A stretch of DNA of 64,000 bases from a virus. Both the position numbers and the translations under genes were made by a program. Under the pieces are notes generated by a model. That model did no database searches. It saw only the letters and a program-made list of their open reading frames with translations, and had not been told where the DNA came from. Location of the stretch: the IMG/VR virus record IMGVR_UViG_3300029395_000163. The stretch is one strand, 5' to 3'. Positions 642 through 58,249 of this stretch are shown here, piece after piece. Within the stretch, counting starts at the first letter, position 1. Every line of letters starts with the position of its first letter.

Positions 642-687
642 TCCTGCGCTAATATTCTTTATTTTAATTCCGAATTCGCTAATATTG

Positions 688-924: not shown

Positions 925-926
925 TG

Positions 927-1440: not shown

Positions 1441-1472
1441 TTAGTTACCTCCATTTCTTGGTGTTTCCGCCT

Positions 1473-1495: not shown

Positions 1496-1527
1496 CGTGA
1501 TTTTTTTTGAATTTAGGCTCGCTTTCT

Positions 1528-2283
1528 TTATAGTAGTGCGTTTGCCGCGAGGAGTTCGCTTTCCCATCCGGGATTATTTTTAAGGATGGAGACAGCACCC
1601 TGTAGTTCTTTTTTCCAACCCACCTTATTAATAACAATAACTCGAGGAGAACATATAGGGCTGTTCTTGCTGGAGCGATGGATTATGTTACTTTTTATCA
1701 ATAATGGATTTGCTCCTTTACAAAGTTCTTCTATTGTGCCGTAAAAAGTATTGTAATGAATCCCAATTTCTTCTGCGGATACTTTTATATTTTTAAAAAA
1801 TGCTTCGGGATTTTCTAGTGTTTCCTCTTGATGGGATGATCTTTTTATAATATTTGCTTTTATATATAGATAGACACGAAGAAGAGTATCTTTGGTTATT
1901 GCAGAGTCAATCTTCATGATATTTAAGAGCTCTTTTTCAGTAAAAATAGTAAAATCACACGATGGATCAAAAGCGTCGCAAATCTGATATTTCAAAAACG
2001 ACTCATATCTTAAAACTGATGGTGTATTGAGTGAGCGTATAAGACCTAATTCTTCCAGTTTATTTATTGATTTAACGATATCGTTGAAAATTTTGGGCTT
2101 TCTAGAAGTACATTTTGCAGAATATATATCCATGATTTCTTTAATCGATATAAAGCTTTGGTTTCTAATGTTTCTATTATTGTTTAGCAAGTAATATATG
2201 ACATAGAACGAAGGTGTTACGTCAAAGTCTTTTTCAATATCGCATTTTATAAAATTGTTCGGAATTTTTACGAAATACTCCAT
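1528..2283 (-). CDS. Winged-helix DNA-binding protein, phage replication-initiator or transcriptional-regulator-like (251 aa from an internal start)
   Basis: The ORF-track ORF is 1528..2451, but Met57 at 2283 is preceded by AAGGAG with 7-nt spacing. Sequence is helix-rich (..SIKEIMDIYSAKCTSRKPKIFNDIVKSINKLEELGLIRSL..). It lies next to an ori-like non-coding region. Confidence 0.5.
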   Translation of the reverse strand: MEYFVKIPNNFIKCDIEKDFDVTPSFYVIYYLLNNNRNIRNQSFISIKEIMDIYSAKCTSRKPKIFNDIVKSINKLEELGLIRSLNTPSVLRYESFLKYQICDAFDPSCDFTIFTEKELLNIMKIDSAITKDTLLRVYLYIKANIIKRSSHQEETLENPEAFFKNIKVSAEEIGIHYNTFYGTIEELCKGANPLLIKSNIIHRSSKNSPICSPRVIVINKVGWKKELQGAVSILKNNPGWESELLAANALL

Positions 2284-2508
2284 AGAATTCTCCTTTCTTT
2301 TCGTACCGGACGTACTTTGCCCAGCAAATATGGGTGATTCAGTCTGGAACGACAATTTTGTGACATGACCCCCAGATAAGCACAGTCGAGATGTCATGTT
2401 TTTGTCACCAGAATGTGACCTATTAATATAAGACTTAATAAGATAAGACATTGTTTCGCCAAGTGGACTTTCGTGTTTTCGGCTAGAAAATGCCGAGCCA
2501 CGAGCGTC

Positions 2509-2531
2509 GCACTATATACTTCTGAAAACGG
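2509..2531 (-). promoter_or_regulatory. 23-bp conserved motif, copy B, about 226 nt upstream of the start of the leftward gene 1528..2283
   Basis: Identical to 1473..1495. Confidence 0.4.
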
Positions 2532-2599
2532 ACAGAATTTTTCTGCGATCTGACGGTTACGGTGAGATATTAGACAATTACTGTGCATATTATCCGTGC

Positions 2600-2637
2600 A
2601 ATAACAAAATAAAAAAGACTACACTCATATGTAGTCT
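2600..2637 (-). terminator. Rho-independent terminator for a leftward transcript
   Basis: 8-bp perfect stem AGACTACA/TGTAGTCT (2616-2623 / 2630-2637) with a 6-nt loop. An A-run on the plus strand at 2607-2616 gives a U-run on the minus-strand RNA. Confidence 0.45.
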
Positions 2638-2873
2638 ATAGAATACAAACGTAATTATCTTTTTTCTGCGAATACATCCAGATGTAATCTGAATATAGAT
2701 ACCAATTCACGCAAGAAAGTTTATTTATGAAAACACACACCTAACAGGATGATTCTTGAAAAGGAGTTCAGCGAGCTGAAAGGTTGTTGCAGATAAAGAA
2801 TCGGATTATATGCTGGAGCTAGAGATTATGCAATGATGTAGCGGCAAAAATTCATTTTTCTGAAAAATCGCAA

Positions 2874-2882
2874 ATTGTGGAT
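2874..2882. promoter_or_regulatory. DnaA box (TGTGGATAA, the reverse complement of the TTATCCACA consensus)
   Basis: Perfect 9-mer. It sits inside a 12-bp unit TTGTGGATAAGT that recurs at 2948..2959. Confidence 0.45.
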
Positions 2883-2949
2883 AAGTTTTTAGCAAAATTG
2901 AAAATCTTAGATAGGACCAGTGAATATACGTTCGGAATCATGTTGATAA

Positions 2950-2958
2950 CTTGTGGAT
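2950..2958. promoter_or_regulatory. DnaA box, second copy
   Basis: Perfect 9-mer TGTGGATAA, 76 bp from the first copy. Confidence 0.45.
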
Positions 2959-2959
2959 A

Positions 2960-3260
2960 AGTCGATTTTTGAGGTGAGGTAGGAATGTTTTTTCGGGCAG
3001 GAATAAAGACTAAAACGATGGGCTGTTCGACGGGTGGTTTGAGGTCTGAAATGTGTTTTTGAGCAGTGATTGTGAGGGAAGAGGGAGGTGTTTTTTGGTA
3101 TGAGGATTTTAAGTGAGTGTTTAAGGGGGCTAACTAATTCGATCCGCTAAAATAAAGGCTCTAAGCTAGGTTTTTGCCACCCCCTTATAAACCGTGACAA
3201 ATTTAGATTTGTGGGTGTTTTTGGGTAGGTGAAAAGTCCAAAATACCGCATAAACAAGCC
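2960..3260. repeat. G/T-rich iteron-like degenerate repeats of the form (A/G)TGTTTTT(T)(G/C)G, at least 4 copies. Possible origin iterons or bent DNA.
   Basis: Repeated motifs near 2981, 3047, 3083 and 3214, with strong G/T strand skew. No convincing ORF here (3300..3521 and 3481..3708 on the minus strand rejected). Confidence 0.3.
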
Positions 3261-3296
3261 ATATTTGAGAAAATCGAAAAAAATTGAAAAAAGGGC

Positions 3297-3324
3297 TTGT
3301 CAGATTTTATGCCGGTCATATAGT
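3297..3324 (+). promoter_or_regulatory. Sigma-70-type promoter (TTGTCA-N16-TATAGT)
   Basis: -35 at 3297-3302 and -10 at 3319-3324. Transcripts run rightward toward the leader and the 3727 gene. Confidence 0.5.
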
Positions 3325-3330
3325 AAGAGT

Positions 3331-3588
3331 GTAACTTGAAAATGAGCATTGAAACGAGAGAGAGGAGTAGAAAAGAAACCAGTCAACCAAACACAAAAGA
3401 CCTTCCCATAGGCATGATAAAACGATTTGAAACAAGTCAACAAAGCAACTAGAGACCCTCTAGTAAAACAGGGTTGCACCCTACACGCTAGGGTGTAGCG
3501 TTCCATGACAAACGAATACAAGAGCGGAAGGCAGGTGGTGTATCCCCGAACTTCCGAACCACTTTAGGGAACTAAAGTAGATTTTTTT
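3331..3588 (+). ncRNA. Putative small RNA or terminated leader of about 260 nt, running from the promoter to an intrinsic terminator
   Basis: No ORF with an RBS lies between the promoter at 3297 and the terminator at 3561-3588. The 3' part contains repeat copy 1 (GGTGGTGTATCCCC). Confidence 0.3.
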
Positions 3589-3606
3589 GGTGGTGTATCC
3601 CCAAAC
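3533..3606. repeat. Two direct copies of AGGTGGTGTATCCCC(G/A)AAC, at 3533-3551 and 3587-3606. They flank the leader terminator and are inverted relative to 4601..4622.
   Basis: Read directly from the sequence; the 14-bp core GGTGGTGTATCCCC is identical in both. Confidence 0.6.
3561..3588 (+). terminator. Intrinsic terminator or attenuator (stem ACTTTAG, loop GGAA, stem CTAAAGT, then T7)
   Basis: 7-bp perfect stem with a tetraloop, followed by AGATTTTTTT. Confidence 0.45.
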
Positions 3607-3726
3607 CAAGTCTTTTCCTTTGTGGGGCTGGAAGTGTTGGAAACTCTTGGAAATTCCATATTTTGTCAAAACATTACAAAACTGGGCTACAACTATGCCC
3701 AAAAACAAGAAAAAGGAGAAAAAATC

Positions 3727-25097: not shown

Positions 25098-25790
25098 TTG
25101 AGTAAGAGAAAGATAATTTTATTGCCAGACAAATTTAAAAAGAAAACAGGGATACATGTCGTTACTGCTCACAGAGGGAAAATGGAAGGAATGGCATCAA
25201 TTTCTACTTCCTGCCTCTGCAATAAACATTGTAAAGAATACAGTAAAAATAATGAAAACATATGTTCTTACTGTTATGCAAATACAAGTCTGAGAACTTT
25301 TACAGGGATGCAAGATAACTGCAAGAAGAACACAGAGATTTTAACCTCGAGAATTTTAACTCCAGAAGAGCTTCCAGTTTTGAACTATTCGTATTTCAGA
25401 TTTGAAGCATTTGGCGATTTAGTCAATGAAACACAACTTATTAACTATTTCAATATTTGCCGCAATAATAAGGGAACGCATTTCGCTTTATGGACCAAAA
25501 ACCCGTTTATTGTTCAGAGTGCTATATCTAAAGGATATAAGAAGCCGAGAAATCTAAATATAATTCTGAGTAGCATGAAGGTGAACAAACCGGCAGAACA
25601 CTCGAAATACGATTTCGTAGATAAGATTTTTACTGTGTATTCTGATGACTATATTTCTGAAAATAAAATAGAAATTAATTGCGGATCAAAATCATGTTTA
25701 TTGTGCCAGAAATGCTACCGCAAGACGAAAGAAAAAGAAATTAATGAGCGGTTAAAAGTAAGAAAAGTCAAAGGAGAAAATATTGCATAA
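25098..25790 (+). CDS. Cys-rich protein resembling the phage Gp37/Gp68 (DUF5131) family (230 aa)
   Basis: SCLCNKHC...ICSYCYA resembles the GC..S.GC.NCYA N-terminal signature. TTG start right after GGAGGG. Confidence 0.4.
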   Translation: MSKRKIILLPDKFKKKTGIHVVTAHRGKMEGMASISTSCLCNKHCKEYSKNNENICSYCYANTSLRTFTGMQDNCKKNTEILTSRILTPEELPVLNYSYFRFEAFGDLVNETQLINYFNICRNNKGTHFALWTKNPFIVQSAISKGYKKPRNLNIILSSMKVNKPAEHSKYDFVDKIFTVYSDDYISENKIEINCGSKSCLLCQKCYRKTKEKEINERLKVRKVKGENIA

Positions 25791-26609: not shown

Positions 26610-27623
26610 ATGCAGGGAAGACTAGAGACGAAGTTAAAAACGGAAGCAAAAATTCGCAGCCAACTGGATGAAGCGCCGAAATACCTGCAAGATTATGCTT
26701 ATAACTTGTCGTCTTCAAAAGAACCAAGAACAGTTTTGGAATATATTAGAAAGATAAAATTGTTCTTAACATTCTTAAATGAAGACTACAATCAGATTGA
26801 TATTTCTAAAGTTACAGATTCAGATATCAGCCGGTATATCGCAAGCAGAGAAGTAAAAAAGGTAAAAGTGAAAAATAAAAGAACCGGAAAAGTAGAAGAA
26901 AAAATATCCGCTACTTCCGCTTCATACTTAAAGGGAACCCATACAGTGCTTATGGGTTTCTTTTCTTATCTGCAAGCGAAAGAATATATTAAGTCAAATC
27001 CAGTTCAAATGATTCAGCGAATCAGGAGGGAAGATACAATAAAAAGAAGGCGATTTAAAGAAGAAGACTTGAGAGAAATAATGAAGTCTGTAGATCGAAT
27101 CAATAAAGAAGGTAGCTATATCGGATATAGAGATAGAGCAATCATAATGTTGCTAATAAATACAGGAATGAGAGAAACTGCGCTGACAGAGATAAATGTA
27201 GGAGACATTAATTTTAACGACAACAAGTTAGTTATCATAGATAAGAGATATACAACTCATGAATATTATCTAAACCCAATGTTATCCAGCATATTAAAAG
27301 ATTATATCGAGAAGAGGGAAGAGTATCTAGTAGGAAGAGAAATAGATGCTCTTTTTGTTTCGCAGAAAAAGAACAGGATACATCCTAATTCTGTTGCGGA
27401 TTTAGTAAAAAAGTACACTCTTGATTCACTCGGCACACCGTTATCTCCTCATAAACTTAGAGCGGCGTTCTGCACTATACTTTACGATAAAACGAAAGAC
27501 ATAGAATTTGTTCGGGATGTTGTTGGACATAAAAGTGCATCTACGACAAGAAAATATATTGTTAAAGATGGAACTGAAAAAATGAAAGCATCAAATATGA
27601 TGGCAGATATATTCAAGCAATAG
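26610..27623 (+). CDS. int: Tyrosine recombinase / phage integrase (337 aa)
   Basis: C-terminal motif HKLRAAFCTILYDK....VVGHKSASTTRKYI (R..H..R..Y catalytic residues). GAGGAGG RBS. Confidence 0.8.
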   Translation: MQGRLETKLKTEAKIRSQLDEAPKYLQDYAYNLSSSKEPRTVLEYIRKIKLFLTFLNEDYNQIDISKVTDSDISRYIASREVKKVKVKNKRTGKVEEKISATSASYLKGTHTVLMGFFSYLQAKEYIKSNPVQMIQRIRREDTIKRRRFKEEDLREIMKSVDRINKEGSYIGYRDRAIIMLLINTGMRETALTEINVGDINFNDNKLVIIDKRYTTHEYYLNPMLSSILKDYIEKREEYLVGREIDALFVSQKKNRIHPNSVADLVKKYTLDSLGTPLSPHKLRAAFCTILYDKTKDIEFVRDVVGHKSASTTRKYIVKDGTEKMKASNMMADIFKQ

Positions 27624-27648
27624 ACCGGGGATTTTCTCCGGTTTTTCT
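27624..27648 (+). terminator. Putative intrinsic terminator after int
   Basis: 8-bp stem ACCGGGGA/TCTCCGGT with a T-run. Confidence 0.4.
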
Positions 27649-27715
27649 CATAAAAATTTGACCGAAAATGAGAAGTAGTAAGTAAAGGAACAATTAAAGA
27701 AAGAGAGAAAGGGTT

Positions 27716-28279
27716 ATGTTATATGTAATACAAAAAGGAAATCAATATATACGGTTGAGCGATACTGGAAAAGTAGATACCGTAGGATTAAAAAAAGCGA
27801 CAAAATTTACGCTGGATGAAGCAAGAAGAACAAAGTTAAAGGCTCCCGTAAAGACAAAAGGATTTGAAATACGCGAACAGCCTTTAAAAGATACTAAAGA
27901 GAAAAAGAAAAAAACTATACGAAAACAGTTCAGCGTGTCAGAGAGAAGTCAGGTTTATAGCAAGACAAATGGACATTGCGGAATTTGCGGCGAATTTGTT
28001 CCGTTCGATTCTTTTACGATAGACCATATTATTCCGATATCGAAAGGCGGAAGCAGCACAATAGATAATCTACAGTGTTCTTGCTTGGTCTGCAATCGAA
28101 TTAAACAAGATATTTTGCCGGAAGATTTGTTCGATAAGATTTCTGCAATAATTTCATATCAGCTTAAAATTGGCGGTAAAATCGAAGTAGACAGCCTTTT
28201 AAAAGATTGCATTAAAAAGAAAATGTCTCTAAAAATGTTTGGAATAAAAAAGAGGGGAAAACACAAGCATGACAAATAA
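27716..28279 (+). CDS. HNH endonuclease (187 aa)
   Basis: CGICG....DHIIPISKGGSSTIDNLQCSCLVCNRIK is an HNH His-Me finger. Confidence 0.75.
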   Translation: MLYVIQKGNQYIRLSDTGKVDTVGLKKATKFTLDEARRTKLKAPVKTKGFEIREQPLKDTKEKKKKTIRKQFSVSERSQVYSKTNGHCGICGEFVPFDSFTIDHIIPISKGGSSTIDNLQCSCLVCNRIKQDILPEDLFDKISAIISYQLKIGGKIEVDSLLKDCIKKKMSLKMFGIKKRGKHKHDK

Positions 28280-28460
28280 AGATTTGATTGATTTATGTAC
28301 CGAGCGCTGGGATAGAATTCATAAAATATATCCAGAAAGACCGTGTGAGGGATGTGAATACTATAAGCAGTGCACTATTTTCTGGAATAAATACCGGACG
28401 ACTCCCTACAAAGAACAATACAGTAAGTTACTGTATACTGACAAAAAAATACCGTATTAA
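28269..28460 (+). CDS. Small Cys-containing protein (63 aa)
   Basis: ORF overlapping the end of the HNH gene. Confidence 0.4.
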   Translation: MTNKDLIDLCTERWDRIHKIYPERPCEGCEYYKQCTIFWNKYRTTPYKEQYSKLLYTDKKIPY

Positions 28461-28508
28461 AATGGTAAAAGATACCACGGGAAACACGAACAAAAGTTCG
28501 GAAAATGC

Positions 28509-28538
28509 TTGACACTGTGCTGTAGTACATGGTATATT
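28509..28538 (+). promoter_or_regulatory. Strong sigma-70-type promoter (TTGACA-N18-TGgTATATT with extended -10)
   Basis: Consensus -35 plus extended -10, followed by about 400 nt of leader before the GTG at 28944. Confidence 0.5.
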
Positions 28539-28943
28539 ATGACAAGGAAAATAAAAAACCGCCCCTTTATAACGGTGTTGGAGCACCTTGGGGCGGAACG
28601 TAAAATGCTTTGTCCATAAAAGAACAAAGATTGTAAAGATATGTTGGAGCATATCCTTACGTTTCTTTATCTTACTATACAATTCTTTTAAGGTCAAATA
28701 AAATCTTTATTAAATATTTTCCAAAAAACGTAACTGAATAACAAAAGAAAGTCTCGGTGTAAAGATGTCTTTGTGCGGCGAACGCCTGTTTGCACCATAA
28801 AAACATTGAGAAATTACTTAGTTGACTTTCTAAAAACCGCATGGTTAAGCCATATTTCGGGGGTGAAATGCGTCCGTTATATGGAAACCTTGCCGGTAGA
28901 CTGTAGCACTTGAAAGTGTTAGTGTTCGAAAGAGAGGTTAGAA

Positions 28944-31202
28944 GTGAATACGGAAAAAAATGTCGAAGAGTATTATGCAAATAATGCTGCAAAAGTCAGA
29001 AAAATGGTTGATGATATCATTAAGCGGTACAGATTTAATATTACCGACAAAGATGATTTCTATTCAATCGCAAATGAAGTATTTGTAAAGATACTGGATA
29101 CTTACGACGGCAAAAGAGATTTTAAGGGATATCTATATTCTTGCTTAGAGAATCGAATCAAGCAGGAACAAACAAGGAGAAATGCTCTTAAAAACGGCGG
29201 AGATAAGCTCATATCGTCTTTAGATGATACTGAAAGTAATGAAGACATAAATCCTTATGAAGTTATTGAAGGAGCTATATCAGCAGAAGATGAATTTATG
29301 GAGAATTGCGGAGAATGGAGCAGTCCTGTAATTGCAGAATATTTTAGTAAGTTAAGTCCGATGCAGATGGAAATAGCCAAGCTCAAGTCAGAAGGATATT
29401 CGTTTGAAGAAATAGCGAAAAAACTTGGAATTACATTAAACAGATATTATGAATTATGTAATGATATGACATCAATAGAGAAGACAAGAGATTTAATCAG
29501 TTCAAAAAATAAAGCATTAAAAAAAGAATTTGTTATTAAAGGAGAACCATCTATGAATATTCCCAAAGCAGAAACCAGAACAACCACTACTAGTACAAGC
29601 GAAAAGACAAAAATGATTGCATTATCTGTAATATCTATATGTCTGCAATTAGATGCTCGTAGTATTTTGGATAATCACCCGCTTCAGAGAGCGTCTGGTC
29701 AATGGTCTAAAATCATGCAGAGCAATTTAATTTCAGATTTATTGCAAGGAAATGCAATTCCTCCGCTTTTGCTGGCAGAACAGTATATTAATGGGGTCGC
29801 CTATAAATGGCTTTTAGATGGTAAACAGCGACTTGTCGGAGCTATATATTCATATTTAAATGATGGGTTCAAAATCAGTAGAAATGTAGAGAGAAATATG
29901 ATTGAGTATCAAGCAAATGAACAAGATGAGAATGGTAACATTGTTTGCGACAGTTACGGAATCCCGAAGAAGATTAACTGCGAATTCGACATTAGAAATA
30001 AAAAGTTCTCTCAATTACCGAAAGAATTACAAGAGAGATTTAAAAATTACAACCTCCAGATAACTCTTAATCTAAACTGCACAAAGGAGCAGATTGAATA
30101 CGATATCAGAAGATACAATCAGTCTAAGCCGATGAGTGTTGCTCAGAAAGGAGTTACTTATCTTGGAGAAGATTTTACTAAAATCGTTAAGACTCTTTCA
30201 GCGAAACCGTTCTTTAAAGAAAAAGGTAATTATAGTCCATCAGAATCTTATAACGGCAAATTAGATAGGACAATTATTGAGTCTATTATGTCCATTAACT
30301 TTTTAGATAAATGGAATAAGAGTAATGACGTAAACTGTTCATATTTAAAAGAGAACGCAAAAGTGAAACAGTTTAACGTTTTAGAATCCATAATCGATAG
30401 ATTATACGATGTTGTTACTGACGAAGTAAATGACTTGTTTGATTCAAAGAATTCATTTGTCTGGTTTACTTTATTTGATCGGTTTACAAAGACTAAGATT
30501 GGTCGCTCGGAAACAGAAGATGAAAAGTTCGTAGAATTTTTGGCGGCATACAAAGAAGAACTACATAGCCGAAAAATTGACGGCATGACAACGGAAGACA
30601 TTGATTATAACGCTGGGACAAAAGGAAGAGTGGCGGTCAGAAAGAAACTCGAACATATTGAAGCACTCATGAATGAGTTTTTGGGAATTGAAGTTTCAGA
30701 AGGAGTCGAATCTTTCAATACTAATGACACAATCGATAGCTATATTTCGGAATTTTGCTCAACAAATCTTATGAACAATGCGGTCTCTGGAGATGTAAAT
30801 AAAGTAAGAGCCGCTGTCGGAAGTATGATGTTTGTAAATGGATTTAATGATTATTCAGATAAAGCTATTCAGGAGTATATCTCCGGCAATAACTATTCAG
30901 AGAATGATATTTCAGATATGGAATTGTATTCTTCTGTATTGAACGACTGGAGTTCAGATATTGACAAAAACTCAAGAATTTTCGACATGGAGAATATCCC
31001 AGTATTATTAAAAGTCATTTCTAAATCATATGAGAAGGAAATGGATGAAAACTTCTGTATTGAATGGTTTAAAGGAATCGTGGAAAACTACGGAACAAAC
31101 GTAAAATTTTCCGGCGTAAATACAGAAGATTATAATATGATGCTCAATAGTTTAAATAACTATGTGACATATAAAGAAGAGAAACTCGAAGATGCAGCAT
31201 AA
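28944..31202 (+). CDS. Fusion protein (752 aa): N-terminal ECF-like sigma-70 domain (regions 2 and 4) joined to a DUF262 / ParB-like (GmrS N-terminal type) domain and a long C-terminal region
   Basis: Region 2-like DDFYSIANEVFVKILDTYDGKRDFKGYLYSCLENRIKQEQTRR. Region 4 HTH LSPMQMEIAKLKSEGYSFEEIAKKLGITLNRYYEL. DUF262 signatures HPLQRASGQWS and, about 40 aa later, WLLDGKQRLVGAIY (cf. IP.YQR.Y.W ... IDGQQRLTT). GTG start with an AGAGAGG RBS. Confidence 0.6.
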   Translation: MNTEKNVEEYYANNAAKVRKMVDDIIKRYRFNITDKDDFYSIANEVFVKILDTYDGKRDFKGYLYSCLENRIKQEQTRRNALKNGGDKLISSLDDTESNEDINPYEVIEGAISAEDEFMENCGEWSSPVIAEYFSKLSPMQMEIAKLKSEGYSFEEIAKKLGITLNRYYELCNDMTSIEKTRDLISSKNKALKKEFVIKGEPSMNIPKAETRTTTTSTSEKTKMIALSVISICLQLDARSILDNHPLQRASGQWSKIMQSNLISDLLQGNAIPPLLLAEQYINGVAYKWLLDGKQRLVGAIYSYLNDGFKISRNVERNMIEYQANEQDENGNIVCDSYGIPKKINCEFDIRNKKFSQLPKELQERFKNYNLQITLNLNCTKEQIEYDIRRYNQSKPMSVAQKGVTYLGEDFTKIVKTLSAKPFFKEKGNYSPSESYNGKLDRTIIESIMSINFLDKWNKSNDVNCSYLKENAKVKQFNVLESIIDRLYDVVTDEVNDLFDSKNSFVWFTLFDRFTKTKIGRSETEDEKFVEFLAAYKEELHSRKIDGMTTEDIDYNAGTKGRVAVRKKLEHIEALMNEFLGIEVSEGVESFNTNDTIDSYISEFCSTNLMNNAVSGDVNKVRAAVGSMMFVNGFNDYSDKAIQEYISGNNYSENDISDMELYSSVLNDWSSDIDKNSRIFDMENIPVLLKVISKSYEKEMDENFCIEWFKGIVENYGTNVKFSGVNTEDYNMMLNSLNNYVTYKEEKLEDAA

Positions 31203-31211
31203 GGAGGGCTT

Positions 31212-31361
31212 ATGGCGAAGAAAATTGATTTGCAGCTCGGAGACAATGTAGTGATGATTGCTATGACTATTATCACAGATGACGGTAAAGACGCAGGAAC
31301 TTATTCCGTCGAACAGAGATTGTATACAACAGAGGATTTCGAGTCGGAGGATGAAACATGA
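31212..31361 (+). CDS. Small acidic protein (49 aa)
   Basis: TAAGGAGGG RBS followed directly by ATG. Not in the ORF track (under 60 aa). Confidence 0.4.
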   Translation: MAKKIDLQLGDNVVMIAMTIITDDGKDAGTYSVEQRLYTTEDFESEDET

Positions 31362-31412
31362 TATTCAAGGACTTGATAATCTGTTAAATATAAGAAGAGG
31401 AGGAAAGCAGTT

Positions 31413-31580
31413 TTGTTTGTGGTTTTTCTAATAGGGGTTTTTATTGCCGCCTTTATAGGTCTATTGCTAGTTTATATCGGCAACAAGGTTTTAAATGAGA
31501 TGAAGATGGATGATATGAACTCCGAAATGGAGATGAAAATTAAAAAAGAAATGACGAATTTTAAGGAGAAAAGCGAATGA
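31413..31580 (+). CDS. Small single-TM membrane protein (55 aa), TTG start, translationally coupled to the SPFH gene
   Basis: GAGGAGG RBS. Its stop overlaps the SPFH start (ATGA). Confidence 0.4.
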   Translation: MFVVFLIGVFIAAFIGLLLVYIGNKVLNEMKMDDMNSEMEMKIKKEMTNFKEKSE

Positions 31581-32440
31581 AAAAGATTATTGCACTTGTT
31601 TTAGTAGTAGTGTTTGCGATTTTTGGAGGAATTTTTGCGGTAACACACATAAAAGTTATTGATGCCGGGAAAGTGGGAGTTGTTTATTCTGCAAATGGAG
31701 GCGTTAAAGACGAGCTATATCGTCAGGGATGGCACTTTGTTCCTCCGATGCATAAAGTAAAAGAATTCACTGTTGGAAACGAGCAGTTAGTCCTTTCAAA
31801 AGATAAAAGAGAAGGATCTGAAGGAGATGATTCCTTTAAAGTTGCGACATCCGATGACGCAAGCATCGGATTAAGTTTCCAGATGAGCTATAGATTCATC
31901 GAAGAAAATGTTGCCGATACATATAAGAAATTTAAGGGTATGAGCGGAGAAGACATTGTAAATAATCGAGTAAAAACGGTTATCAAATCAAAAATCTCCG
32001 AAGTTACTACAAATTATAGCATGATGGATATTTATTCCGGAAACAGAAGCGAGATCAACCACAAAATCACAGAATATCTAAATAAAGATTTTAGCAGCAA
32101 GTACGGAATTGAAGTATTGGATGCTTCCATTATTGATGTCCATTTAGATAAAAAGTTAAAACAGGCGGTAGAGAACCGAGTGCAGGCGTTACAGAAAAAA
32201 CAGCAGGCACAGGTTGAACAGGAAACTGTAAAGGTAGAGAATGAAACCAAGTTATTGCAGGCAAAGAATGATGCTGAAATTAAGAAGACAAAAGCTGAAG
32301 CTGAAGCCGCATCTAATCAGACAATCGCAAAGAGTATCACAAAAGAATTAATCGAAATGAAACTAGCGGAAGCGAGACTTGAGCATGGTTGGATTACGAC
32401 TCAGGGAGCTGGAGCTGTGGTAACAAACGGAGGTAATTAA
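31577..32440 (+). CDS. SPFH / band-7 (flotillin/HflKC/prohibitin-like) membrane protein (287 aa)
   Basis: N-terminal TM, then VIDAGKVGVVYSANGGVKDELYRQGWHFVPPMHKVKEFTV..., typical of the SPFH domain, with a C-terminal coiled coil. Confidence 0.7.
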   Translation: MKKIIALVLVVVFAIFGGIFAVTHIKVIDAGKVGVVYSANGGVKDELYRQGWHFVPPMHKVKEFTVGNEQLVLSKDKREGSEGDDSFKVATSDDASIGLSFQMSYRFIEENVADTYKKFKGMSGEDIVNNRVKTVIKSKISEVTTNYSMMDIYSGNRSEINHKITEYLNKDFSSKYGIEVLDASIIDVHLDKKLKQAVENRVQALQKKQQAQVEQETVKVENETKLLQAKNDAEIKKTKAEAEAASNQTIAKSITKELIEMKLAEARLEHGWITTQGAGAVVTNGGN

Positions 32441-38565: not shown

Positions 38566-41500
38566 ATGACAATCTTAGATTATGCAGTTAAAGCGAAAGA
38601 ACGGCTTGATTTTGTTTTCCCGTATGACTTAAAAGAATGGCTCGGAGATATGAATATGCTGATGGAAAACTATCATAAGCATACAACATGGTCTGATTTG
38701 GTTCAGATTGATTCCGCTACGAGCATGGAAGAATTTATAGAGTATTCAAAAGATTTGGGTTGCAAGAATTATTTTTCTGGAGAACATGGATATCAAGGGG
38801 AATGGCTTGCGGCGTATGACTTATGCACTCAAACAGGAGTAAATTTTAGATATTCAGTAGAAGCATATTGGGTAAAAGATATAAATAGTGTTACCACAGA
38901 AGAGTACATAGACAAAAAAGGAAACAAAAAAATAAGAGAAAAAAAAGACAATATGAATTGCCATATGATGATTGTTGCAAGGAATTACAAAGCAATGAGA
39001 AAGCTAAACTACATGATTTCGGTGGCTCATCAGGAAGGATTTTATTATAAGCCGCGAATCGACTTAAATATGCTTTTTGAGCTAGACGAAGATGACGTTT
39101 ATATTACATCTGCCTGCATTGCTGGGTGGAAATATGAGGATGCAACCGAAATTTGGTATAGAGTTGCAAAACATTTTGGAAGCAGCTTTTTTCTCGAATA
39201 TCAGGCAAACAATACAGATGAACAGAAGAAAATCAACAGTGTTATCTACGAGCTTTCTCAATCAGCCGGAATTAAAACAATTATTGGTTTGGATACTCAC
39301 TATATCAGTGAAGAAGATAGGATTAAAAGAGATAACCTTTTAAAGAGAAAAGGAATTCGATATCCCGAGGAAGATGGCTGGTATATGGATTTCCCGACTG
39401 GAACAGAAGTGTTTCAAAGAATGAATGAGCAAGGGGTTATACCTCCGGAAGAAATCATATATGCGATGATGAATACTCACGTATTTAACGAAGGATGTGA
39501 AGATCTAAACTACAATACAAAATTCAAAATACCAATCTTAGAAAAATACAAGGGTAAATCTTACGAAGAGAGATCGAAAATTTTGCTGGACTTGCTCAAC
39601 AAAAAATATAATGAAGAAGATTTTGAACATAGAACAGAAGACAGAAAAGAAGGTATGCTTTATGAATATTCTGAGATAGACGGAAGCGGAACGGTCGATT
39701 ATTTCTTAGATAATTACGAGCTTATTGATTTGGCGGTTAATAAATATGGAGGACACATAACTACTACTTCAAGAGGAAGTGCGAGTTCATATTATTCAAG
39801 TAAATTACTTGGATTTACAACTATGGATAGATTCGAAGCGGAAGTTCCTATTTACCCAGAAAGGTTTGTAACAAAGGACAGAATATTAAATTCCCATCAA
39901 ATGCCAGATATTGATATTAATTGCCAATCACAAGAGCCATTCGTTTTGGCAGGCAAAGAACTATGTGGAGAACATGGTTGTTATCCATTACTTGCTGTTG
40001 GTAGACTGAAGGAGAAGAACGGATTTAAGCTTTACGCGGGAGTGAACGGAATTGAACCTTCAGTAGCAAATGAAATTACTAAAAGTATTGATCGATATAA
40101 TGAGGCTCTCAAAAATGCAGAAGAAGAGGATAAAGACCTTATAAATATTGAAGATTATATTACAGATGAATATCATTTACAATTATTCAATGAAAGTAAG
40201 TCATATCAGGAAATCATTGAACAAGCGAAGGTTCATGCTTGTGGTTTTGCTTTATTTAACGGAGTTATTGGAGAAGAAGATGTTCCCGGATATGGAGATA
40301 TTCGATATGAGATAGGACTTATTCGTTGCCATTCCGAAAGTACAGGAAAGACAACCATTGTTGCAAATATTGAAGGAAGTTTGCTTGATAAATACGGATA
40401 TGTAAAAGACGATTTCTTAATCGTAGATGTTGTAGGTATTATACATAAGCTGTATTCAGCGATTGGGCGCGAAGTTCCGACTGTTACAGAATTAAGAAAA
40501 ATGGTAACTGATGACGAAAAAACATGGAAGATGTACGAAATTGGTGCGACATGTTGTTTAAATCAGTGCGAAAAAGCTTCTACTACTAAAAAGGTCATGA
40601 AGTTTAAACCGAAAAATATTAAGGAATTAGCTGCATTTATTGCAGGCATAAGACCCGGGTTTAAATCACTGATAGACGGATTTTTGGATAGAGTGGAGTA
40701 CACGAACGGAGAACCGGCAATCGACGATTTGCTGGAAGATTGTTTTCATTACATGTTGTACCAAGAAGCAGTAATGAAGATTTTTTCGTGGCTCGGAATC
40801 GAAATGAAAGATAGTTACGACACGATAAAGAAAATCAGCAAAAAGAAATTAAAAGGCGAAGCACTGCAGCACGTAGAAGACACGTTAAGAGAACATTGGT
40901 TACAAAATATCGGGAATCTAGATAATTTCGAACCAGTGTATAAAGTAATTAAGGATTCGGCGAGATATAGCTTCAATGCTCCTCATGCTCTGGCAATGGC
41001 GAACGACAGTTTATATGAAGCGTGGATGAAAGCGAATTATCCGTCTGTATTCTATGAAGTAACATTGAATCACTATCAAGAAAAAGGAGATAAGAATAAA
41101 GTCGCTGAGTTGATTCACGAAGCTAGAGTGGTTTTCGGCTATAAAATGGGAACCTATGAGTACGGCAAAGATAATACGAAATTTACGGTAGATGATTCAG
41201 ATAAGATTATTTATCCTAACTTATCAAGTGTTAAAAGCATTGGAGATAAAGCGGTAGAGGCTATGATGGAAATATCTAAAACTGATAAAAAAGATATTCT
41301 TGATATTTACGCCGCAATAAAGGGAACAAAAATAAATTCATCTGTATTCAGAAAACTTGTAAAGATTAATTATTTCAAGCAGTACGGAACTATTAAGTAT
41401 ATACTTCGATGCTTAGATGTTTACGACAAATGGGCGGGCAGAAAAACCATTTCAAAATCAGATATCCCGCAGTTAGGGTTACAGAACATAAACCTTAAGA

Positions 41501-41997
41501 AATATACAACAGATGTAACTCCAAAAGGAAATATAAGTAAAAAGAGATTGGTTATTTACGACATAATGGGGTTAATAAAGTCCATATGTTCGAATATATC
41601 AGAAGAAGAATTCCCGTCTCCAATCATGGCTCAGTTCCAGTATGAGATTCTTGGGTATATAGATTATAGGGACGAAGGAGTGATGGATGGATATAGGACG
41701 GTATGCGTAACCAATTTAGACACAAGATATTCCCCTAAATTTGATGCATATTGTATTAAGAATGGGGAGATTTCGGAAATGAAGATTCACAAGAAAAAGA
41801 ACTTCAGGGATAAAAGATGCAAAACCAGCTTTCAAGATTTAAAAATCCAAGACGGAGACATTATTTATATACGAGACTGCAAAAAAGAACCAAAAAGGCG
41901 AAAAACGGACAATGGATGGGAAGACATTCCAGATGCATACGATTGGTGGATTAAAGATTACGATGTCTTGTATAAAGCACATAAGGAGGCAGCTTGA
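38566..41997 (+). CDS. dnaE: DNA polymerase III alpha subunit (DnaE/PolC-type, PHP domain plus polymerase core), 1143 aa
   Basis: PHP motifs near the N-terminus (HKHTTWSD...GEHGY) and the FNAPHALAMANDSLYEAWMKANYP finger motif. Confidence 0.8.
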   Translation: MTILDYAVKAKERLDFVFPYDLKEWLGDMNMLMENYHKHTTWSDLVQIDSATSMEEFIEYSKDLGCKNYFSGEHGYQGEWLAAYDLCTQTGVNFRYSVEAYWVKDINSVTTEEYIDKKGNKKIREKKDNMNCHMMIVARNYKAMRKLNYMISVAHQEGFYYKPRIDLNMLFELDEDDVYITSACIAGWKYEDATEIWYRVAKHFGSSFFLEYQANNTDEQKKINSVIYELSQSAGIKTIIGLDTHYISEEDRIKRDNLLKRKGIRYPEEDGWYMDFPTGTEVFQRMNEQGVIPPEEIIYAMMNTHVFNEGCEDLNYNTKFKIPILEKYKGKSYEERSKILLDLLNKKYNEEDFEHRTEDRKEGMLYEYSEIDGSGTVDYFLDNYELIDLAVNKYGGHITTTSRGSASSYYSSKLLGFTTMDRFEAEVPIYPERFVTKDRILNSHQMPDIDINCQSQEPFVLAGKELCGEHGCYPLLAVGRLKEKNGFKLYAGVNGIEPSVANEITKSIDRYNEALKNAEEEDKDLINIEDYITDEYHLQLFNESKSYQEIIEQAKVHACGFALFNGVIGEEDVPGYGDIRYEIGLIRCHSESTGKTTIVANIEGSLLDKYGYVKDDFLIVDVVGIIHKLYSAIGREVPTVTELRKMVTDDEKTWKMYEIGATCCLNQCEKASTTKKVMKFKPKNIKELAAFIAGIRPGFKSLIDGFLDRVEYTNGEPAIDDLLEDCFHYMLYQEAVMKIFSWLGIEMKDSYDTIKKISKKKLKGEALQHVEDTLREHWLQNIGNLDNFEPVYKVIKDSARYSFNAPHALAMANDSLYEAWMKANYPSVFYEVTLNHYQEKGDKNKVAELIHEARVVFGYKMGTYEYGKDNTKFTVDDSDKIIYPNLSSVKSIGDKAVEAMMEISKTDKKDILDIYAAIKGTKINSSVFRKLVKINYFKQYGTIKYILRCLDVYDKWAGRKTISKSDIPQLGLQNINLKKYTTDVTPKGNISKKRLVIYDIMGLIKSICSNISEEEFPSPIMAQFQYEILGYIDYRDEGVMDGYRTVCVTNLDTRYSPKFDAYCIKNGEISEMKIHKKKNFRDKRCKTSFQDLKIQDGDIIYIRDCKKEPKRRKTDNGWEDIPDAYDWWIKDYDVLYKAHKEAA

Positions 41998-48488: not shown

Positions 48489-49814
48489 ATGTACTGTGCT
48501 TATATTACTACTATCAGAAAAATTAGAAAACATAGCAACGCAGACAGATTACAGTGCGTTGAGGTATTTGGACAGAATGTAATTGTCGATTTGAGTTACA
48601 AAGAAGGACAGAGGGTAGTATTTTTCCCGACAGACGGGCAGTTATCCGCTGAATATGCGGAAGAAAATAACCTTGTAAGAATTAAAGACGAAAATGGAAA
48701 TAATGTTGGCGGATACATGGACGAAAACAAAAGAAATGTTACTGCAATCAAATTAAGGGGAGAGAAGTCAGAAGGTCTTGTTCTTCCAATCGAAACGCTG
48801 GCTAAATATACAGATATCGAGAAATTAAAGGATGGAGACCAGATTACCGTTTTAGGCGGTCATGAAATTTGTCGTAAATATATTCCTAGAAAAAATGAGA
48901 GAAGTAGTTCTAACTATTCAGGAAGCAAAAATAGTAAAAGAAAGAATAAGAAGAAATTAGCTGTAGTTTATCCGTTCTTTAAGGAGCATAAAGATACCGC
49001 CCAGTTAGCTTACAATATGAATGCTTTTAAGCCGGGCGACACGATTTACATCACTCGTAAAATGCATGGGACTTCCGCTCGAACAGCTAAGACCGTAAAA
49101 GTTGAAGATAAGAATAGTTTTGTTAGAACATTGCTCCGAATGAAACCTAAGAAAGAGAAAAATATTGCGATTGTATCTGGAAGCAGGAGAGTGATTTTAG
49201 AAGACGTAACCAGAAATGATGGATATTACTCCGATAACTCATTTAGAAGAAAATATCATGAGCTGCTTAAAAATCGAATCCCAGAAGGAATGGAAATCTT
49301 TTATGAGATTGTTGGATGGGTAAACGAATCAACTCCAATTATGCCATCTGTTTCAAACAAGAAAGTCAAAGATAAAGAGTTTTCAAGAAAATTTGGCGAT
49401 TCAACCGTTTTTGCTTACGGATGCGAGCCGGGAGAATCAGAAATGTATGTTTATAGAATGACGATGACTTCACCAGATGGAACAGTAATTGAACTTCCGT
49501 GGGAAACAGTTAAGATTTGGTGCGAGAAACTCGGAGTCAATCATGTTCCAGAACTTGAGAAGTTTATGTTCACAACGCAGGAAGACTTAAAAGAAAGAGT
49601 AGATAAATACATTACTGGAATGCCAGCGGATGAAATTGGTAAGACCCATATTGCAGAGGGCGTAGTTGTCAGAATTGACAATAGAGAAAGCTTTACAGCC
49701 TTTAAAGATAAGTGCTTTGAATTTAAGGTTTGCGAAGGAATCATCAAAGATACATCCGACGTTCCAGATATGGAAGAAGCTGAAGAAGTTATGGAGGAAA
49801 ATATAAGTGCATAA
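48489..49814 (+). CDS. ATP-dependent RNA ligase (Rnl5/DraRnl-like; N-terminal OB-like domain plus nucleotidyltransferase), 441 aa
   Basis: Motif I KMHGTS (cf. T4 Rnl2 KIHGTN). Domain order resembles DRB0094-type ligases. Confidence 0.6.
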   Translation: MYCAYITTIRKIRKHSNADRLQCVEVFGQNVIVDLSYKEGQRVVFFPTDGQLSAEYAEENNLVRIKDENGNNVGGYMDENKRNVTAIKLRGEKSEGLVLPIETLAKYTDIEKLKDGDQITVLGGHEICRKYIPRKNERSSSNYSGSKNSKRKNKKKLAVVYPFFKEHKDTAQLAYNMNAFKPGDTIYITRKMHGTSARTAKTVKVEDKNSFVRTLLRMKPKKEKNIAIVSGSRRVILEDVTRNDGYYSDNSFRRKYHELLKNRIPEGMEIFYEIVGWVNESTPIMPSVSNKKVKDKEFSRKFGDSTVFAYGCEPGESEMYVYRMTMTSPDGTVIELPWETVKIWCEKLGVNHVPELEKFMFTTQEDLKERVDKYITGMPADEIGKTHIAEGVVVRIDNRESFTAFKDKCFEFKVCEGIIKDTSDVPDMEEAEEVMEENISA

Positions 49815-50802
49815 AAGAATACCTCGTTTAATTGTGATGGTTGGGCTTTCTGCGAGCGGGAAGTCTAGCTACGCAAAAGAACTTGAAAAGGAAAATCCGA
49901 CAAACACGATCGTAATTTCATCTGACGCAATAAGAGAAGAGATATGCGGAAGAGTGGAAGATCAATCTAAAAACGGAGAAGTATTTAGAATTTTCCACGA
50001 AAGAATTCGAAGAAATCTTGAAAAGAAAAAAGATGTTATTGCAGATGCAACAAATATTACGATGAAATCTCGCCGAGCAATTCTAAATCGTGTAAATGGC
50101 TTAGACGTACATAAAGAATGTTATATCATGTCAAAACCATTTAGTTATTGCGTGGAAGATAATAAAGATAGAGAGCATCCGGTTCCAGAAAGTGTTCTGT
50201 ATAAACAATTATTCAAATTCCAGATTCCATTCTATGAAGAAGGATGGGATTATGTTTCTATAGTGGCACGTCATGACTTCGACGACCTTTATAGAGCCTT
50301 TTCCGTTTCAGATTTGTTTAGTCGTATGTATCAGTTCGATCAAAAAAATCCACATCACAATAGAACACTGGACGAACATTGCTCAGAAGCATACGAATGT
50401 TTTTGCAAAATGAGAGGATATAATGCTCACTTCTTAAGATTAGCCAGTCATTTTGCCGTAGGAGCGTTCCTTCACGATATCGGAAAAGTGTTTACTCAAA
50501 AAATTGACGAAGATGGAATCGCCCATTATTACGGACATGCGGAAGTTGGAAGTTATATGGTTCTCACTGAATTGCAAAGACCAGATGATTTAAGAGGAAG
50601 TATGCCCCTTCTTGATTGTTGCTTTTTGATAAATTATCATATGTTGCCGTTTGGCTGGAATAGCGAAAAATCTATACGCAAATGGAGAAGTAGATTTGGA
50701 GACAAGAAATTTGAAGTTTTGCGAGATTTCCACCAGTGCGATATCGCAAGAGACAAAGCAAAAGAAATGGAGAAATCTATTGAGAGATGTAAGCAGGATT
50801 AA
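49807..50802 (+). CDS. Polynucleotide kinase (P-loop) fused to an HD-domain phosphohydrolase (331 aa); RNA end-healing enzyme
   Basis: Walker A GLSASGKSS at the N-terminus. C-terminal HHNRTLDEH...FLHDIGK...HYYGHAEVGS is an HD domain. GTG start with GGAGGA. Confidence 0.65.
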   Translation: MHKRIPRLIVMVGLSASGKSSYAKELEKENPTNTIVISSDAIREEICGRVEDQSKNGEVFRIFHERIRRNLEKKKDVIADATNITMKSRRAILNRVNGLDVHKECYIMSKPFSYCVEDNKDREHPVPESVLYKQLFKFQIPFYEEGWDYVSIVARHDFDDLYRAFSVSDLFSRMYQFDQKNPHHNRTLDEHCSEAYECFCKMRGYNAHFLRLASHFAVGAFLHDIGKVFTQKIDEDGIAHYYGHAEVGSYMVLTELQRPDDLRGSMPLLDCCFLINYHMLPFGWNSEKSIRKWRSRFGDKKFEVLRDFHQCDIARDKAKEMEKSIERCKQD

Positions 50803-55987: not shown

Positions 55988-58249
55988 GTGTGTATATTGG
56001 TAAAAGTTATTAAAAGAGACGGAAGTTATGTGGATTTTTGTTCTGATAAAATTTATAAAGCTATTTTAAAGGCGATGCCTTCTGGTTCTGGAGTAGATAA
56101 AAAAATAGCATTAGAAGTTGCGGAAGAAATAAAAGCTGAATGTTGCATCGAAGAAGAAATAGATATTTCCGAGATTGAATCAATGGTCTATGACAAATTA
56201 ATAGACAAAGGACATAGGCTGACAGCAAAATCCTACGAAGGATACAGGAGAATCAGAGAATTTCAGCGTGAAAATAAAAATACAACAGATGAACAAATTA
56301 TCCGATTAGTAGAAGACTCCGATGAATATTTGAAGGATGAAAATGCGAATAAAAACCCCGTATTGAATCCAACAAAAAGAGATTATATTGCCGGATCAGT
56401 AAGTTCAGATGCAACAAAAAGATATTTGCTTTCCCCAGATATTGTACAGGCACATACGGATGGACTAATTCATTTTCATGATTCAGATTATTTTATTCAA
56501 CACATGCATAATTGCGACTTGATTAATCTCGAAGATATGCTTCAGAACGGAACAGTAATTAGCGACGTTATGATTGAAAAGCCGCATAGTTTTTCTACAG
56601 CCTGCAATATTGCAACTCAGGCAGTAGCTCAAATCGCCAGTAATCAGTATGGGGGGCAGAGTATTTCTCTTGCTCATTTGGCTCCATTTGTGGAAGTTAG
56701 TAGAAAGAAAATTCGAAAAGAAGTAGAGCATGAATTGCGTGATATAGCCAACACAGTATTAAAAGGTGAAGAGTTTGAAAGGGTAGCCAACAAAATTACA
56801 GAAGAAAGACTCAGGAAAGAGATCGAAAAGGGTATTCAGACAATTCAGTATCAGTTAGTAACTCTTATGACGACAAATGGACAAGCGCCTTTTATTACTA
56901 TTTTCATGTATTTAAATGAAGCAAAAAACAAAAGCGAAAAGAAAGATATTGCAATGCTCATCGAAGAAATGTTGAAACAGAGAATTCAAGGAGTTAAAAA
57001 CGAAGACGGAGTTTATATCGCTCCGGCATTTCCTAAATTAATATATGTTTTGGAAGAAGACAATATCAAAGAGAATTCTACATACTGGTATCTTACAAAA
57101 TTGGCGGCAGAGTGTTCTTCTAAAAGGCTCGTACCAGACTATATCTCTGAAAAAATAATGCTTGAGCTGAAGGGCGACGTTTACACTTGCATGGGATGCA
57201 GGAGTTTTCTTACTGTTGACAGGTTTACGAGCGAGGTAGGTAATATTGCAAATGCAAAAAACTTTGACACCGACAAGCATAAGTATTACGGACGTTTTAA
57301 CCAAGGTGTCGTAACGATCAGCTTACCTGATATTGCTTTGTCGTCTAACGGAGATTTTGATAAGTTTTGGGATATATTTGAAGAAAGAACAGAGTTGTGT
57401 CATAAAGCATTAAGAGCAAGACATGATAGGCTTTTAGGAACTTCATCAGACGTTGCACCTATCTTATGGCAGCATGGAGCTCTTGCGAGACTCAAAAAGC
57501 ACGAGAAAATTGACCGCCTTCTTTACGATGGATATTCCACCATCTCTCTTGGCTATGCCGGACTGTATGAATGTGTCAAATTTATGACCGGATGCTCTCA
57601 TTCAGACGAAGGAAAAGGAGAAGAATTTGGCTTGCAGGTAATGCAGGCATTAAATGATAAATGTAATCAGTGGAAAGAAGCAGAAAATATTGATTACAGT
57701 TTGTATGGAACGCCGCTGGAAAGCACAACATATAAGTTCGCAAAATGTTTAAAATCTCGTTTTGGAGAGGACATCTTTGTTAAATTAGATGGATTTGATA
57801 GGAATTATATCACAAATTCTTACCATATTCCTGTTTTTGAACCAATTACTGCATTTGAAAAACTCAGAATTGAATCTAAGTTTCAGAAATTAAGTCCTGG
57901 AGGGGCAATTTCCTACATTGAAGTGCCAAGCATGAGCCATAATATTCCCGCATTGTTAAATGTTATTGAATTTATATATAACAATATTATGTATGCTGAA
58001 ATCAATACAAAAAGCTGTTATTGCGAAAAATGTGGATTTGACGGGGACATTCCTCTCGTAGAAGATGCAAACGGAAAACTTAAATGGCAATGCCCTAATT
58101 GCGGCAATGATGACAATACAATGATGGACATTGCATTCAGGGTTTGCGGATATATTGGAACTGCAAAAAATGGAGGAAATCAAGGCAGATATGGAGATAT
58201 ACACGATAGAGTGTATCATTTAGACGATATGGAATATGAGGAGGATTAA
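55988..58249 (+). CDS. nrdD: Anaerobic ribonucleoside-triphosphate reductase (class III)
   Basis: ATP-cone-like start VKVIKRDGSYVDF, glycyl radical region, and a C-terminal zinc ribbon CYCEKCG....CPNCG. Start is GTG 55988 or TTG 55997. Confidence 0.8.
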   Translation: MCILVKVIKRDGSYVDFCSDKIYKAILKAMPSGSGVDKKIALEVAEEIKAECCIEEEIDISEIESMVYDKLIDKGHRLTAKSYEGYRRIREFQRENKNTTDEQIIRLVEDSDEYLKDENANKNPVLNPTKRDYIAGSVSSDATKRYLLSPDIVQAHTDGLIHFHDSDYFIQHMHNCDLINLEDMLQNGTVISDVMIEKPHSFSTACNIATQAVAQIASNQYGGQSISLAHLAPFVEVSRKKIRKEVEHELRDIANTVLKGEEFERVANKITEERLRKEIEKGIQTIQYQLVTLMTTNGQAPFITIFMYLNEAKNKSEKKDIAMLIEEMLKQRIQGVKNEDGVYIAPAFPKLIYVLEEDNIKENSTYWYLTKLAAECSSKRLVPDYISEKIMLELKGDVYTCMGCRSFLTVDRFTSEVGNIANAKNFDTDKHKYYGRFNQGVVTISLPDIALSSNGDFDKFWDIFEERTELCHKALRARHDRLLGTSSDVAPILWQHGALARLKKHEKIDRLLYDGYSTISLGYAGLYECVKFMTGCSHSDEGKGEEFGLQVMQALNDKCNQWKEAENIDYSLYGTPLESTTYKFAKCLKSRFGEDIFVKLDGFDRNYITNSYHIPVFEPITAFEKLRIESKFQKLSPGGAISYIEVPSMSHNIPALLNVIEFIYNNIMYAEINTKSCYCEKCGFDGDIPLVEDANGKLKWQCPNCGNDDNTMMDIAFRVCGYIGTAKNGGNQGRYGDIHDRVYHLDDMEYEED

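Follow-up and report, generated by a model that had tools for sequence, protein, structure and literature searches.

What does a phage protein do that begins as a sigma factor and continues as a module so far known from anti-phage defence? The question is raised by one gene in a 64,000-nt stretch (hereafter the window) of the IMG/VR virus record IMGVR_UViG_3300029395_000163, whose 752-aa product had been described, from the letters and open reading frames alone (hereafter the sequence-only reading), as a sigma-70-like domain fused to a DUF262/ParB-like one. Profile searches and predicted structure confirm that residues 3-188 are a two-domain sigma factor of the sigma-70 family, similar to the extracytoplasmic function (ECF) type, and residues 215-582 are confirmed as a complete NsnA/GmrSD-type module consisting of a ParB-DUF262 domain and a helical ParBDB domain (hereafter the sensor). 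Across the family, sigma factor and sensor are an obligate pair, encoded by one fused gene or by two neighbouring genes. We give an even chance to the interpretation that we favour, in which the phage expresses the sigma factor early and a nucleoside triphosphate (NTP)-binding DNA sensor controls its activity or its targeting to DNA.

A sigma factor joined to a ParB-DUF262 module

The motif strings quoted in the sequence-only reading were all located in the protein, two of them in the sigma part (DDFYSIANEV...TRR, aa 37-79; LSPMQ...YYEL, aa 137-171) and two in the sensor (HPLQRASGQWS, aa 245-255; WLLDGKQRLVGAIY, aa 289-302). For the sigma part, the NCBIfam sigma70-ECF model TIGR02937 matched aa 17-167 with 61.2 bits (cut-off 42.9) and reached profile position 149 of 165. 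Among Pfam families, Sigma70_ECF stood just at its threshold (21.2 bits, cut-off 21.1), Sigma70_r2 (19.3 bits) was under its own cut-off, and Sigma70_r4_2 (13.9 bits) was weak when taken alone, as were the helix-turn-helix (HTH) matches. An AlphaFold model, with a predicted local distance difference test score (pLDDT) of 78.8, contains sigma domains 2 and 4 joined by a disordered linker of 40 aa, with no sigma1.1 or sigma3 domain, and Foldseek aligned the whole sigma part to ECF sigmaH over ~190 columns (probability 0.97-0.99). Profile and predicted structure thus agree on the region 2 and the region 4 HTH that had been proposed at the N-terminus.

A profile built from 45 family members matched SigA and RpoD structures over regions 2.2-2.4, a region 3.2-like motif and region 4. 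The region 3.2-like motif lies in the linker, where the family consensus SLDxPIGxxxxxTxGDxI aligned to SigA PVSLETPIGEE..LGDFI. Profile searches of the fusion protein returned no anti-sigma domain family, and in relatives in which the two parts are split, the gene downstream of the sigma gene encodes the ParB-DUF262 protein itself, not an anti-sigma factor.

For the sensor, the PADLOC profile of NsnA from the Menshen system was matched (E 2.4e-10); aa 215-579 cover profile positions 39-382 of 385, so that the match ends within the ParBDB-like domain. NsnA has been described as a ParB-DUF262 domain followed by a helical DNA-binding "ParBDB" domain (PMC12065111), and within our family the ParBDB-like domain has a mean pairwise identity of 61%. 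Pfam GmrSD_N (PF03235) was sub-threshold on the fusion protein (23.9 bits, cut-off 33.2, E 5e-5); 34 of the 45 family members matched it at E<=1e-3 (best E 5.9e-12), and precomputed PF03235 matches are on record for most homologues. Because a sequence search against solved structures yielded sigma factors only, a fold search was needed for the DUF262 part; in it, the modelled sensor matched BrxU and SspE and has the ParB-DUF262 fold.

The ParB-DUF262 motifs have been defined as QRxxxW, DGxQR and FxxxN (PMC12065111, 2025). The first is present here as QRASGQW (aa 248-254), one residue longer than the definition, the second as DGKQR (aa 292-296), conserved family-wide, and the third as a variant, IRRYN (aa 388-392), with I replacing F. 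Q248, R249, W254, D292, G293 and Q295 are invariant across the 45 relatives, and among 146 more distant representatives R249 is still invariant and D292, G293, Q295 and R296 are at least 90% conserved. From these invariant motifs we infer that the sensor would bind, and could hydrolyse, NTP. Motifs, NsnA match, fold and the GmrSD_N matches of relatives together uphold the DUF262-type domain proposed earlier.

The remainder of the protein, previously set down as some 400 residues of unknown function, can be assigned: ~180 aa are the ParBDB helical domain of the NsnA-type module, and the last 160 aa are an additional GmrSD-type helical domain (aa 590-752). Modelled separately, these last 160 aa are all-helical, with eight helices and a pLDDT of 90.5, and this tail resembles the protein's own ParBDB-like region (E 4e-4, vs 0.2-0.5 for controls). 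It is missing from ~30% of relatives. Its invariant and near-invariant columns include no histidine, and no DUF1524 His-Me nuclease was found in the fusion protein with Pfam even at E<=10, in agreement with the absence of this motif reported by the sequence-only reading.

An obligate pair, fused or adjacent

An exhaustive search with the sensor module returned at least 221 clusters at 50% identity (E<1e-30). Of these, the 146 best were examined: a sigma domain is present in 76 and not in 69, and the complete sigma2 - linker - sigma4 layout is kept in at least 76. Genomic loci were then inspected for the neighbours of the unfused forms. Within 80 IMG/VR loci, 44 encode the fusion, 35 carry a separate sigma gene (189-225 aa) on the same strand 17-33 nt upstream, and one is cut by a contig end. 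With 78 loci from species-representative bacterial genomes added, 162 related loci were available in total: 111 fused, 44 adjacent and two split by a spacer of ~390 nt. Of the remaining five, three are contig ends, and the only real exceptions are a degraded fragment and a locus where no sigma gene lies within 6 kb. The free-standing sigma proteins are of ordinary sigma size and match TIGR02937 over the whole model (E 1e-5 to 1e-9). Since 111 independent loci carry the fusion, the architecture is not a sequencing fusion. A neighbour-joining tree of the sensor module requires at least four changes between the fused and the split state; fusion or fission has therefore been repeated while adjacency was kept, which is strong evidence that sigma factor and sensor work as one unit.

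The carriers are prophages and gut phage contigs. Hosts are almost all Lachnospiraceae, in which the gene lies in prophages, and the viral contigs mostly measure 110-180 kb. Identical or near-identical 752-aa fusion proteins occur on many contigs with sizes up to 359 kb, and a homologue is present in the 176-kb phage genome MT835469.1. Cultured carriers include Eisenbergiella tayi DSM 26961, Hungatella hathewayi WAL-18680, Lacrimispora spp. and [Clostridium] symbiosum ATCC 14940.

Promoter, leader and gene neighbourhood

The features of the locus are collected below.

Coordinates of the fusion gene, its domains and its upstream elements in the 64-kb window
Feature	Residues	Coordinates	Strand	Basis or characteristics
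Host sigmaA-type promoter of fusion gene		28509..28538	+	TTGACA, 18-nt spacer, TG, TATATT; 11/12 plus TG
5' leader, ~400 nt		28545..28943	+	conserved, structured
Putative cis-antisense small RNA, ~114 nt		28548..28661	-	three hairpins, CCGCCCC/GGGGCGG stem, U-run
Promoter-like site of antisense RNA		28669..28697	-	TTGACC, 17-nt spacer, TAAGAT; 9/12
Sigma/ParB-DUF262 fusion gene	752 aa	28944..31202	+	GTG start
Sigma domain 2	3-83	28950..29192	+	three helices with region 2 motifs
Sigma2-sigma4 linker	84-124	29193..29315	+	disordered, pLDDT <50
Sigma domain 4 with HTH	125-188	29316..29507	+	TIGR02937, Foldseek
ParB-DUF262 (GmrSD_N-type) domain	222-400	29607..30143	+	motifs, GmrSD_N, NsnA, fold
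Helical ParBDB-like domain	401-582	30144..30689	+	NsnA-C / GmrSD-M type DNA-binding domain
Variable C-terminal domain	590-752	30711..31199	+	eight helices

The sequence-only reading had credited the gene with a consensus promoter carrying an extended -10, and comparison bears this out: both hexamers and the TG are conserved, with a varying spacer, in three related phages, and in L087 and L088 the hexamers are identical and the spacer differs. This promoter is the sole + strand site with at most one mismatch in the window. Transcription would start near 28545, some 400 nt before the start codon, and over 27600-31700, which takes in the gene and 500 nt beyond it, the + strand yielded no terminator-like call.

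The long leader noted earlier is accordingly present here at ~400 nt; it is not a family-wide trait, the median upstream gap being 156 nt and short in many members, and its 5' part overlaps a putative convergent antisense small RNA. A leader profile found four very close relatives only, and Rfam matches to known RNAs were at chance level. The leader folds with an energy of -116.6 kcal/mol (z -5.6 vs shuffles) and shows ten pairs with compensatory changes among four sequences. It is conserved to the same degree as the neighbouring genes, being 80-85% identical to L087 where the flanking genes are 64-81% identical.

The first ~115 nt of the leader are better explained as a - strand RNA, because of the hairpins and their folding scores (- strand -39.2 kcal/mol, z -6.1; + strand -34.1, z -3.65), because positions that form A.C mismatches on the + strand pair as G.U or Watson-Crick on the - strand in each of the four related leaders, and because a conserved promoter-like site faces that of the fusion gene, its hexamers conserved and its spacer varying across the four related loci. 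Terminator-like sites around the leader were called on the - strand only, and the GC stem and U-run that end the antisense RNA overlap the + strand transcription start. Judged from these sequence features, the sigma gene looks to be under convergent antisense control, an arrangement restricted to this phage group. Two loops of the putative antisense RNA read CUCCAA, resembling an anti-Shine-Dalgarno sequence. The exact 10-mer TGTTGGAGCA occurs twice, at 28576-28585 and 28642-28651 (66 nt apart), each time at a hairpin apex, and neither copy varies among four related phages. A role as a dispersed binding site was rejected, with no other exact copy in the window and one-mismatch matches at chance level.

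As a whole, the window corresponds to the part of a large phage or prophage that holds its early and replication genes, with nearly all genes on the + strand. Annotated products are a tyrosine integrase, an HNH endonuclease, an SPFH protein, a Sak annealing protein, an HD hydrolase, a PD-(D/E)XK exonuclease, a single-stranded DNA-binding protein (SSB), DnaB, a primase, a PolIII-alpha-type polymerase, an RNA ligase with polynucleotide kinase, an NAD-dependent ligase and NrdD. Synteny with the window is complete in close relatives (76-86% identity), in the order integrase, HNH, fusion gene, SPFH, Sak, exonuclease, SSB, DnaB, primase and PolIII, and in them the fusion gene heads the early and replication genes. 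Downstream of the fusion gene lie two small open reading frames (ORFs), the SPFH protein gene and recombination genes, none with a PADLOC match. Over the family, the recurrent neighbours are all upstream, namely a tyrosine integrase, a Cro/C1-type HTH gene, a PemK toxin and a - strand block of virion genes, and no recurrent downstream neighbour was found among 97 dereplicated loci. The Menshen partners NsnB and NsnC were found neither near the fusion gene nor among the recurrent neighbours of the family.

Two of the upstream neighbours are more closely described by position. A conserved ~920-aa phage protein (phrog_25339 / phrog_8308) with no Pfam or PDB sequence match is encoded within the virion block at 42 of the 97 loci, on the opposite strand and one to four genes upstream of the sigma gene (e.g., L169 2592-5351, - strand). 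A PemK/MazF-type toxin gene with a divergent small HTH or ribbon-helix-helix gene stands just upstream of the sigma-sensor gene at 24-26 dereplicated loci (e.g., L001 8411-9233 and L002 8688-9362), and in the window that position is held by the HNH endonuclease gene (27716-28279). We considered the latter, for which PADLOC gave generic HNH matches, as a GmrD-like nuclease partner and rejected it; it is syntenic in close relatives only and not a recurrent neighbour.

Several further candidates were set aside. The 753-aa ORF at 55988-58249, considered as a paralogue of the fusion protein, is the unrelated NrdD. A GP88-like protein (25098-25790) matched the sensor profile weakly over a short helical stretch only, which we judged not meaningful. 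Cultured Bacillus phages with DUF262 proteins (FADO and others) were not retained as models, with no sigma gene adjoining the DUF262 gene. A partition-type ParB of a phage-plasmid was likewise discarded, since no annotated gene in or around the locus matched a partition ATPase and the homologues are chromosomally integrated.

Other DUF262-like genes accompany the family. Several related phages encode a second, shorter, sigma-less DUF262/NsnA-like protein a few kb from the sigma-sensor gene (L002/L003 3217-4026; L014 1218-2414; L149 10684-11487; L152 10644-11444), and the giant protein P0149 (3791 aa) matches the sensor query in 29 separate stretches, best on query residues 60-105, which suggests a long array of repeated DUF262-derived segments. 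Elsewhere in the window, RNA ligase and polynucleotide kinase are encoded side by side at 48489-50802, an arrangement typical of tRNA-repair cassettes, which counteract the anticodon nucleases of the host. Positions 1-3621, the only region with a sizeable - strand ORF (1528-2451), contain a gap of ~1.2-1.4 kb without a + strand ORF and a second sigmaA-like promoter at 3297, and may represent a lysogeny switch or prophage edge. The PolIII-alpha-type polymerase of the 76%-identical relative L087 (16311-19593, 1468 aa) has intein domains (Hint, Intein_splicing), and that of the window (38566-41997, 1143 aa) matched DNA-polymerase families only in PHROGs, the sole search made on it.

A proposed sensor-controlled sigma factor and its alternatives

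How might such a pair work? In the interpretation that we favour, host sigmaA RNA polymerase would transcribe the fusion gene early from its consensus promoter, and the sigma part would then bind host core polymerase and redirect it to phage promoters. The ParB-like module would bind DNA in a nucleotide-dependent manner and would either gate the sigma factor, which would stay inactive until the appropriate state of the DNA is detected, or tether the holoenzyme to phage DNA. In this phage the two are coupled by fusion; in roughly a fifth to a quarter of relatives the sensor is instead a neighbouring downstream gene on the same strand. The logic would be that of GmrSD, SspE and Menshen, in which a DUF262 sensor drives an attached effector, the effector here being a sigma factor and not a nuclease. 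This interpretation coincides with the tethered, NTP-dependent DNA-sensing module envisaged in the sequence-only reading. It also has precedents in which an ECF sigma factor is genetically linked to a DNA-targeting or sensing partner, namely dCas12f-sigmaE (PMC12259090) and type III-E Csx30-RpoE.

A number of observations weigh against it. Within the family, sigma2 (46% identity) and sigma4 (37%) are less conserved than the sensor (61-69%), the tail standing at 31%, and the region 3.2-like ("sigma finger") motif is degenerate in the 752-aa protein and its own clade. K-mer searches of the intergenic regions of the window and of MT835469.1 for a target promoter motif returned AT-rich noise only. 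Homologues at 35-40% identity have no other detectable gene in common with the window within 10-20 kb and often adjoin genes for a PemK toxin, an AbiH protein or HTH proteins; this mobility and these neighbours would also fit an accessory or defence gene. Characterised DUF262 proteins are mostly defence sensors (PMC12065111), and the sigma/sensor family is known here from sequence and predicted structure alone.

A more specific form of the sensor-controlled sigma factor, which we put forward only tentatively and consider less probable than the general one, is that an NTP-gated sensor of the ParB superfamily reads the state of the phage DNA (its replication status, a base modification or a loading site, for example) and delivers or licenses the attached sigma factor accordingly. 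If so, polymerase recruitment would depend on DNA state and not only on promoter sequence. Such a pair would parallel dCas12f-sigmaE and the clamp-gp55 coupling of T4 with protein components only, and would for the first time connect the ParB/DUF262 family directly with RNA polymerase.

The alternative that survives best, unlikely in our view, is a prophage defence or superinfection-exclusion factor, in which the NsnA-type sensor would detect invading, possibly modified, DNA and the sigma factor would be the output, switching on a response or seizing polymerase for abortive infection (compare RpoE of type III-E CRISPR). The PADLOC match to NsnA speaks for such a factor, DUF262 modules are sensors in GmrSD, SspE and Menshen, and sigma factors linked to defence sensors are known. 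The PemK, AbiH and HTH genes among the neighbours and the otherwise unrelated phage backgrounds of distant homologues point the same way, and the gene's own strong host-type promoter could allow expression in a lysogen. Several observations argue against a defence role: close relatives keep the gene in its syntenic place ahead of the early and replication genes, the gene is found in the 176-kb phage genome as well, and neither NsnB, NsnC or a nuclease nearby (the HNH gene aside) nor a recurrent downstream partner accompanies it.

Less probable still is that the sigma-like part has lost its binding to polymerase and serves only as an HTH DNA-binding module, the whole protein being a nucleotide-regulated repressor or genome organiser similar to DndB or KorB. 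DndB, a DUF262 protein that regulates transcription, would be the precedent. It is cited solely as a ParB-family NTPase in the Menshen paper, in which 23% of NsnA proteins carry added N-terminal DNA-binding domains (PMC12065111), an arrangement that a plain DNA-binding addition here would resemble. The lower conservation of sigma2 and sigma4 and the degenerate region 3.2-like motif of this clade are equally compatible with such a module. Against this alternative, the separate sigma-family proteins of split relatives are of normal size and match TIGR02937 from end to end, the full two-domain layout with its linker is retained in at least 76 of the 146 clusters, and most of the family keeps a sigma-finger-like motif, which has no role in a plain DNA binder. 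Finally, the suggestion made in the sequence-only reading that the protein is an anti-defence decoy, mimicking host GmrSD-type enzymes or absorbing their signals, is very improbable, its sole support being a general resemblance to GmrSD without the nuclease, which leaves both the obligate sigma pairing and the invariant NTP-binding motifs unexplained.

The literature searched holds no description of a sigma2/sigma4 factor joined to DUF262, in line with the sequence-only reading, to which the combination was also new; databases record both Pfam domains on some members, under names such as "sigma factor" or "GmrSD domain protein". Some ECF groups are known to carry regulatory C-terminal extensions. 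With ECF-type (group 4) sigma factors the family shares the two-domain sigma2-sigma4 core with its flexible linker, and a regulator fused C-terminally or encoded directly downstream. It differs from them in that this regulator is not an anti-sigma or small sensory domain but a ~370-aa ParB-DUF262 and ParBDB module with an optional second helical domain, in that its consensus retains a region 3.2-like motif, which is more characteristic of groups 1-3, and in that the gene is phage-borne.

The protein also resembles NsnA of Menshen: aa 215-579 span almost the full NsnA profile, and type II NsnA likewise has an added N-terminal nucleic-acid-related domain. Here, however, no NsnB ABC-ATPase or NsnC effector is encoded directly downstream, and the gene resides in a phage and not in a defence island of the host. 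Of the 33 N-terminal families listed for NsnA, those related to sigma-70 are region 1.1-like only (PMC12065111), and the complete sigma2 and sigma4 addition described here falls outside all 33. Compared with the type IV restriction enzymes GmrSD, BrxU and SspE, the fusion protein lacks the DUF1524 His-Me nuclease and has a sigma factor at its N-terminus instead. In contrast to dCas12f-sigmaE (PMC12259090) and to gp55/gp33/gp45 of T4, the partner of the sigma factor is neither an RNA-guided protein nor a sliding clamp, but a predicted NTP-binding protein of the ParB superfamily.

DUF262 sensors have so far been known to drive nucleases in anti-phage defence; here one is found on the phage side, wired to a sigma factor. 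This would make the DUF262 sensor a portable switch that is also able to control transcription, and sigma factor biology would gain a new kind of regulatory or targeting partner. The family is large and common in prophages of human-gut Lachnospiraceae, and its presence in cultured strains makes direct testing feasible. The pairing could explain how the timing of gene expression is set in large temperate gut phages.

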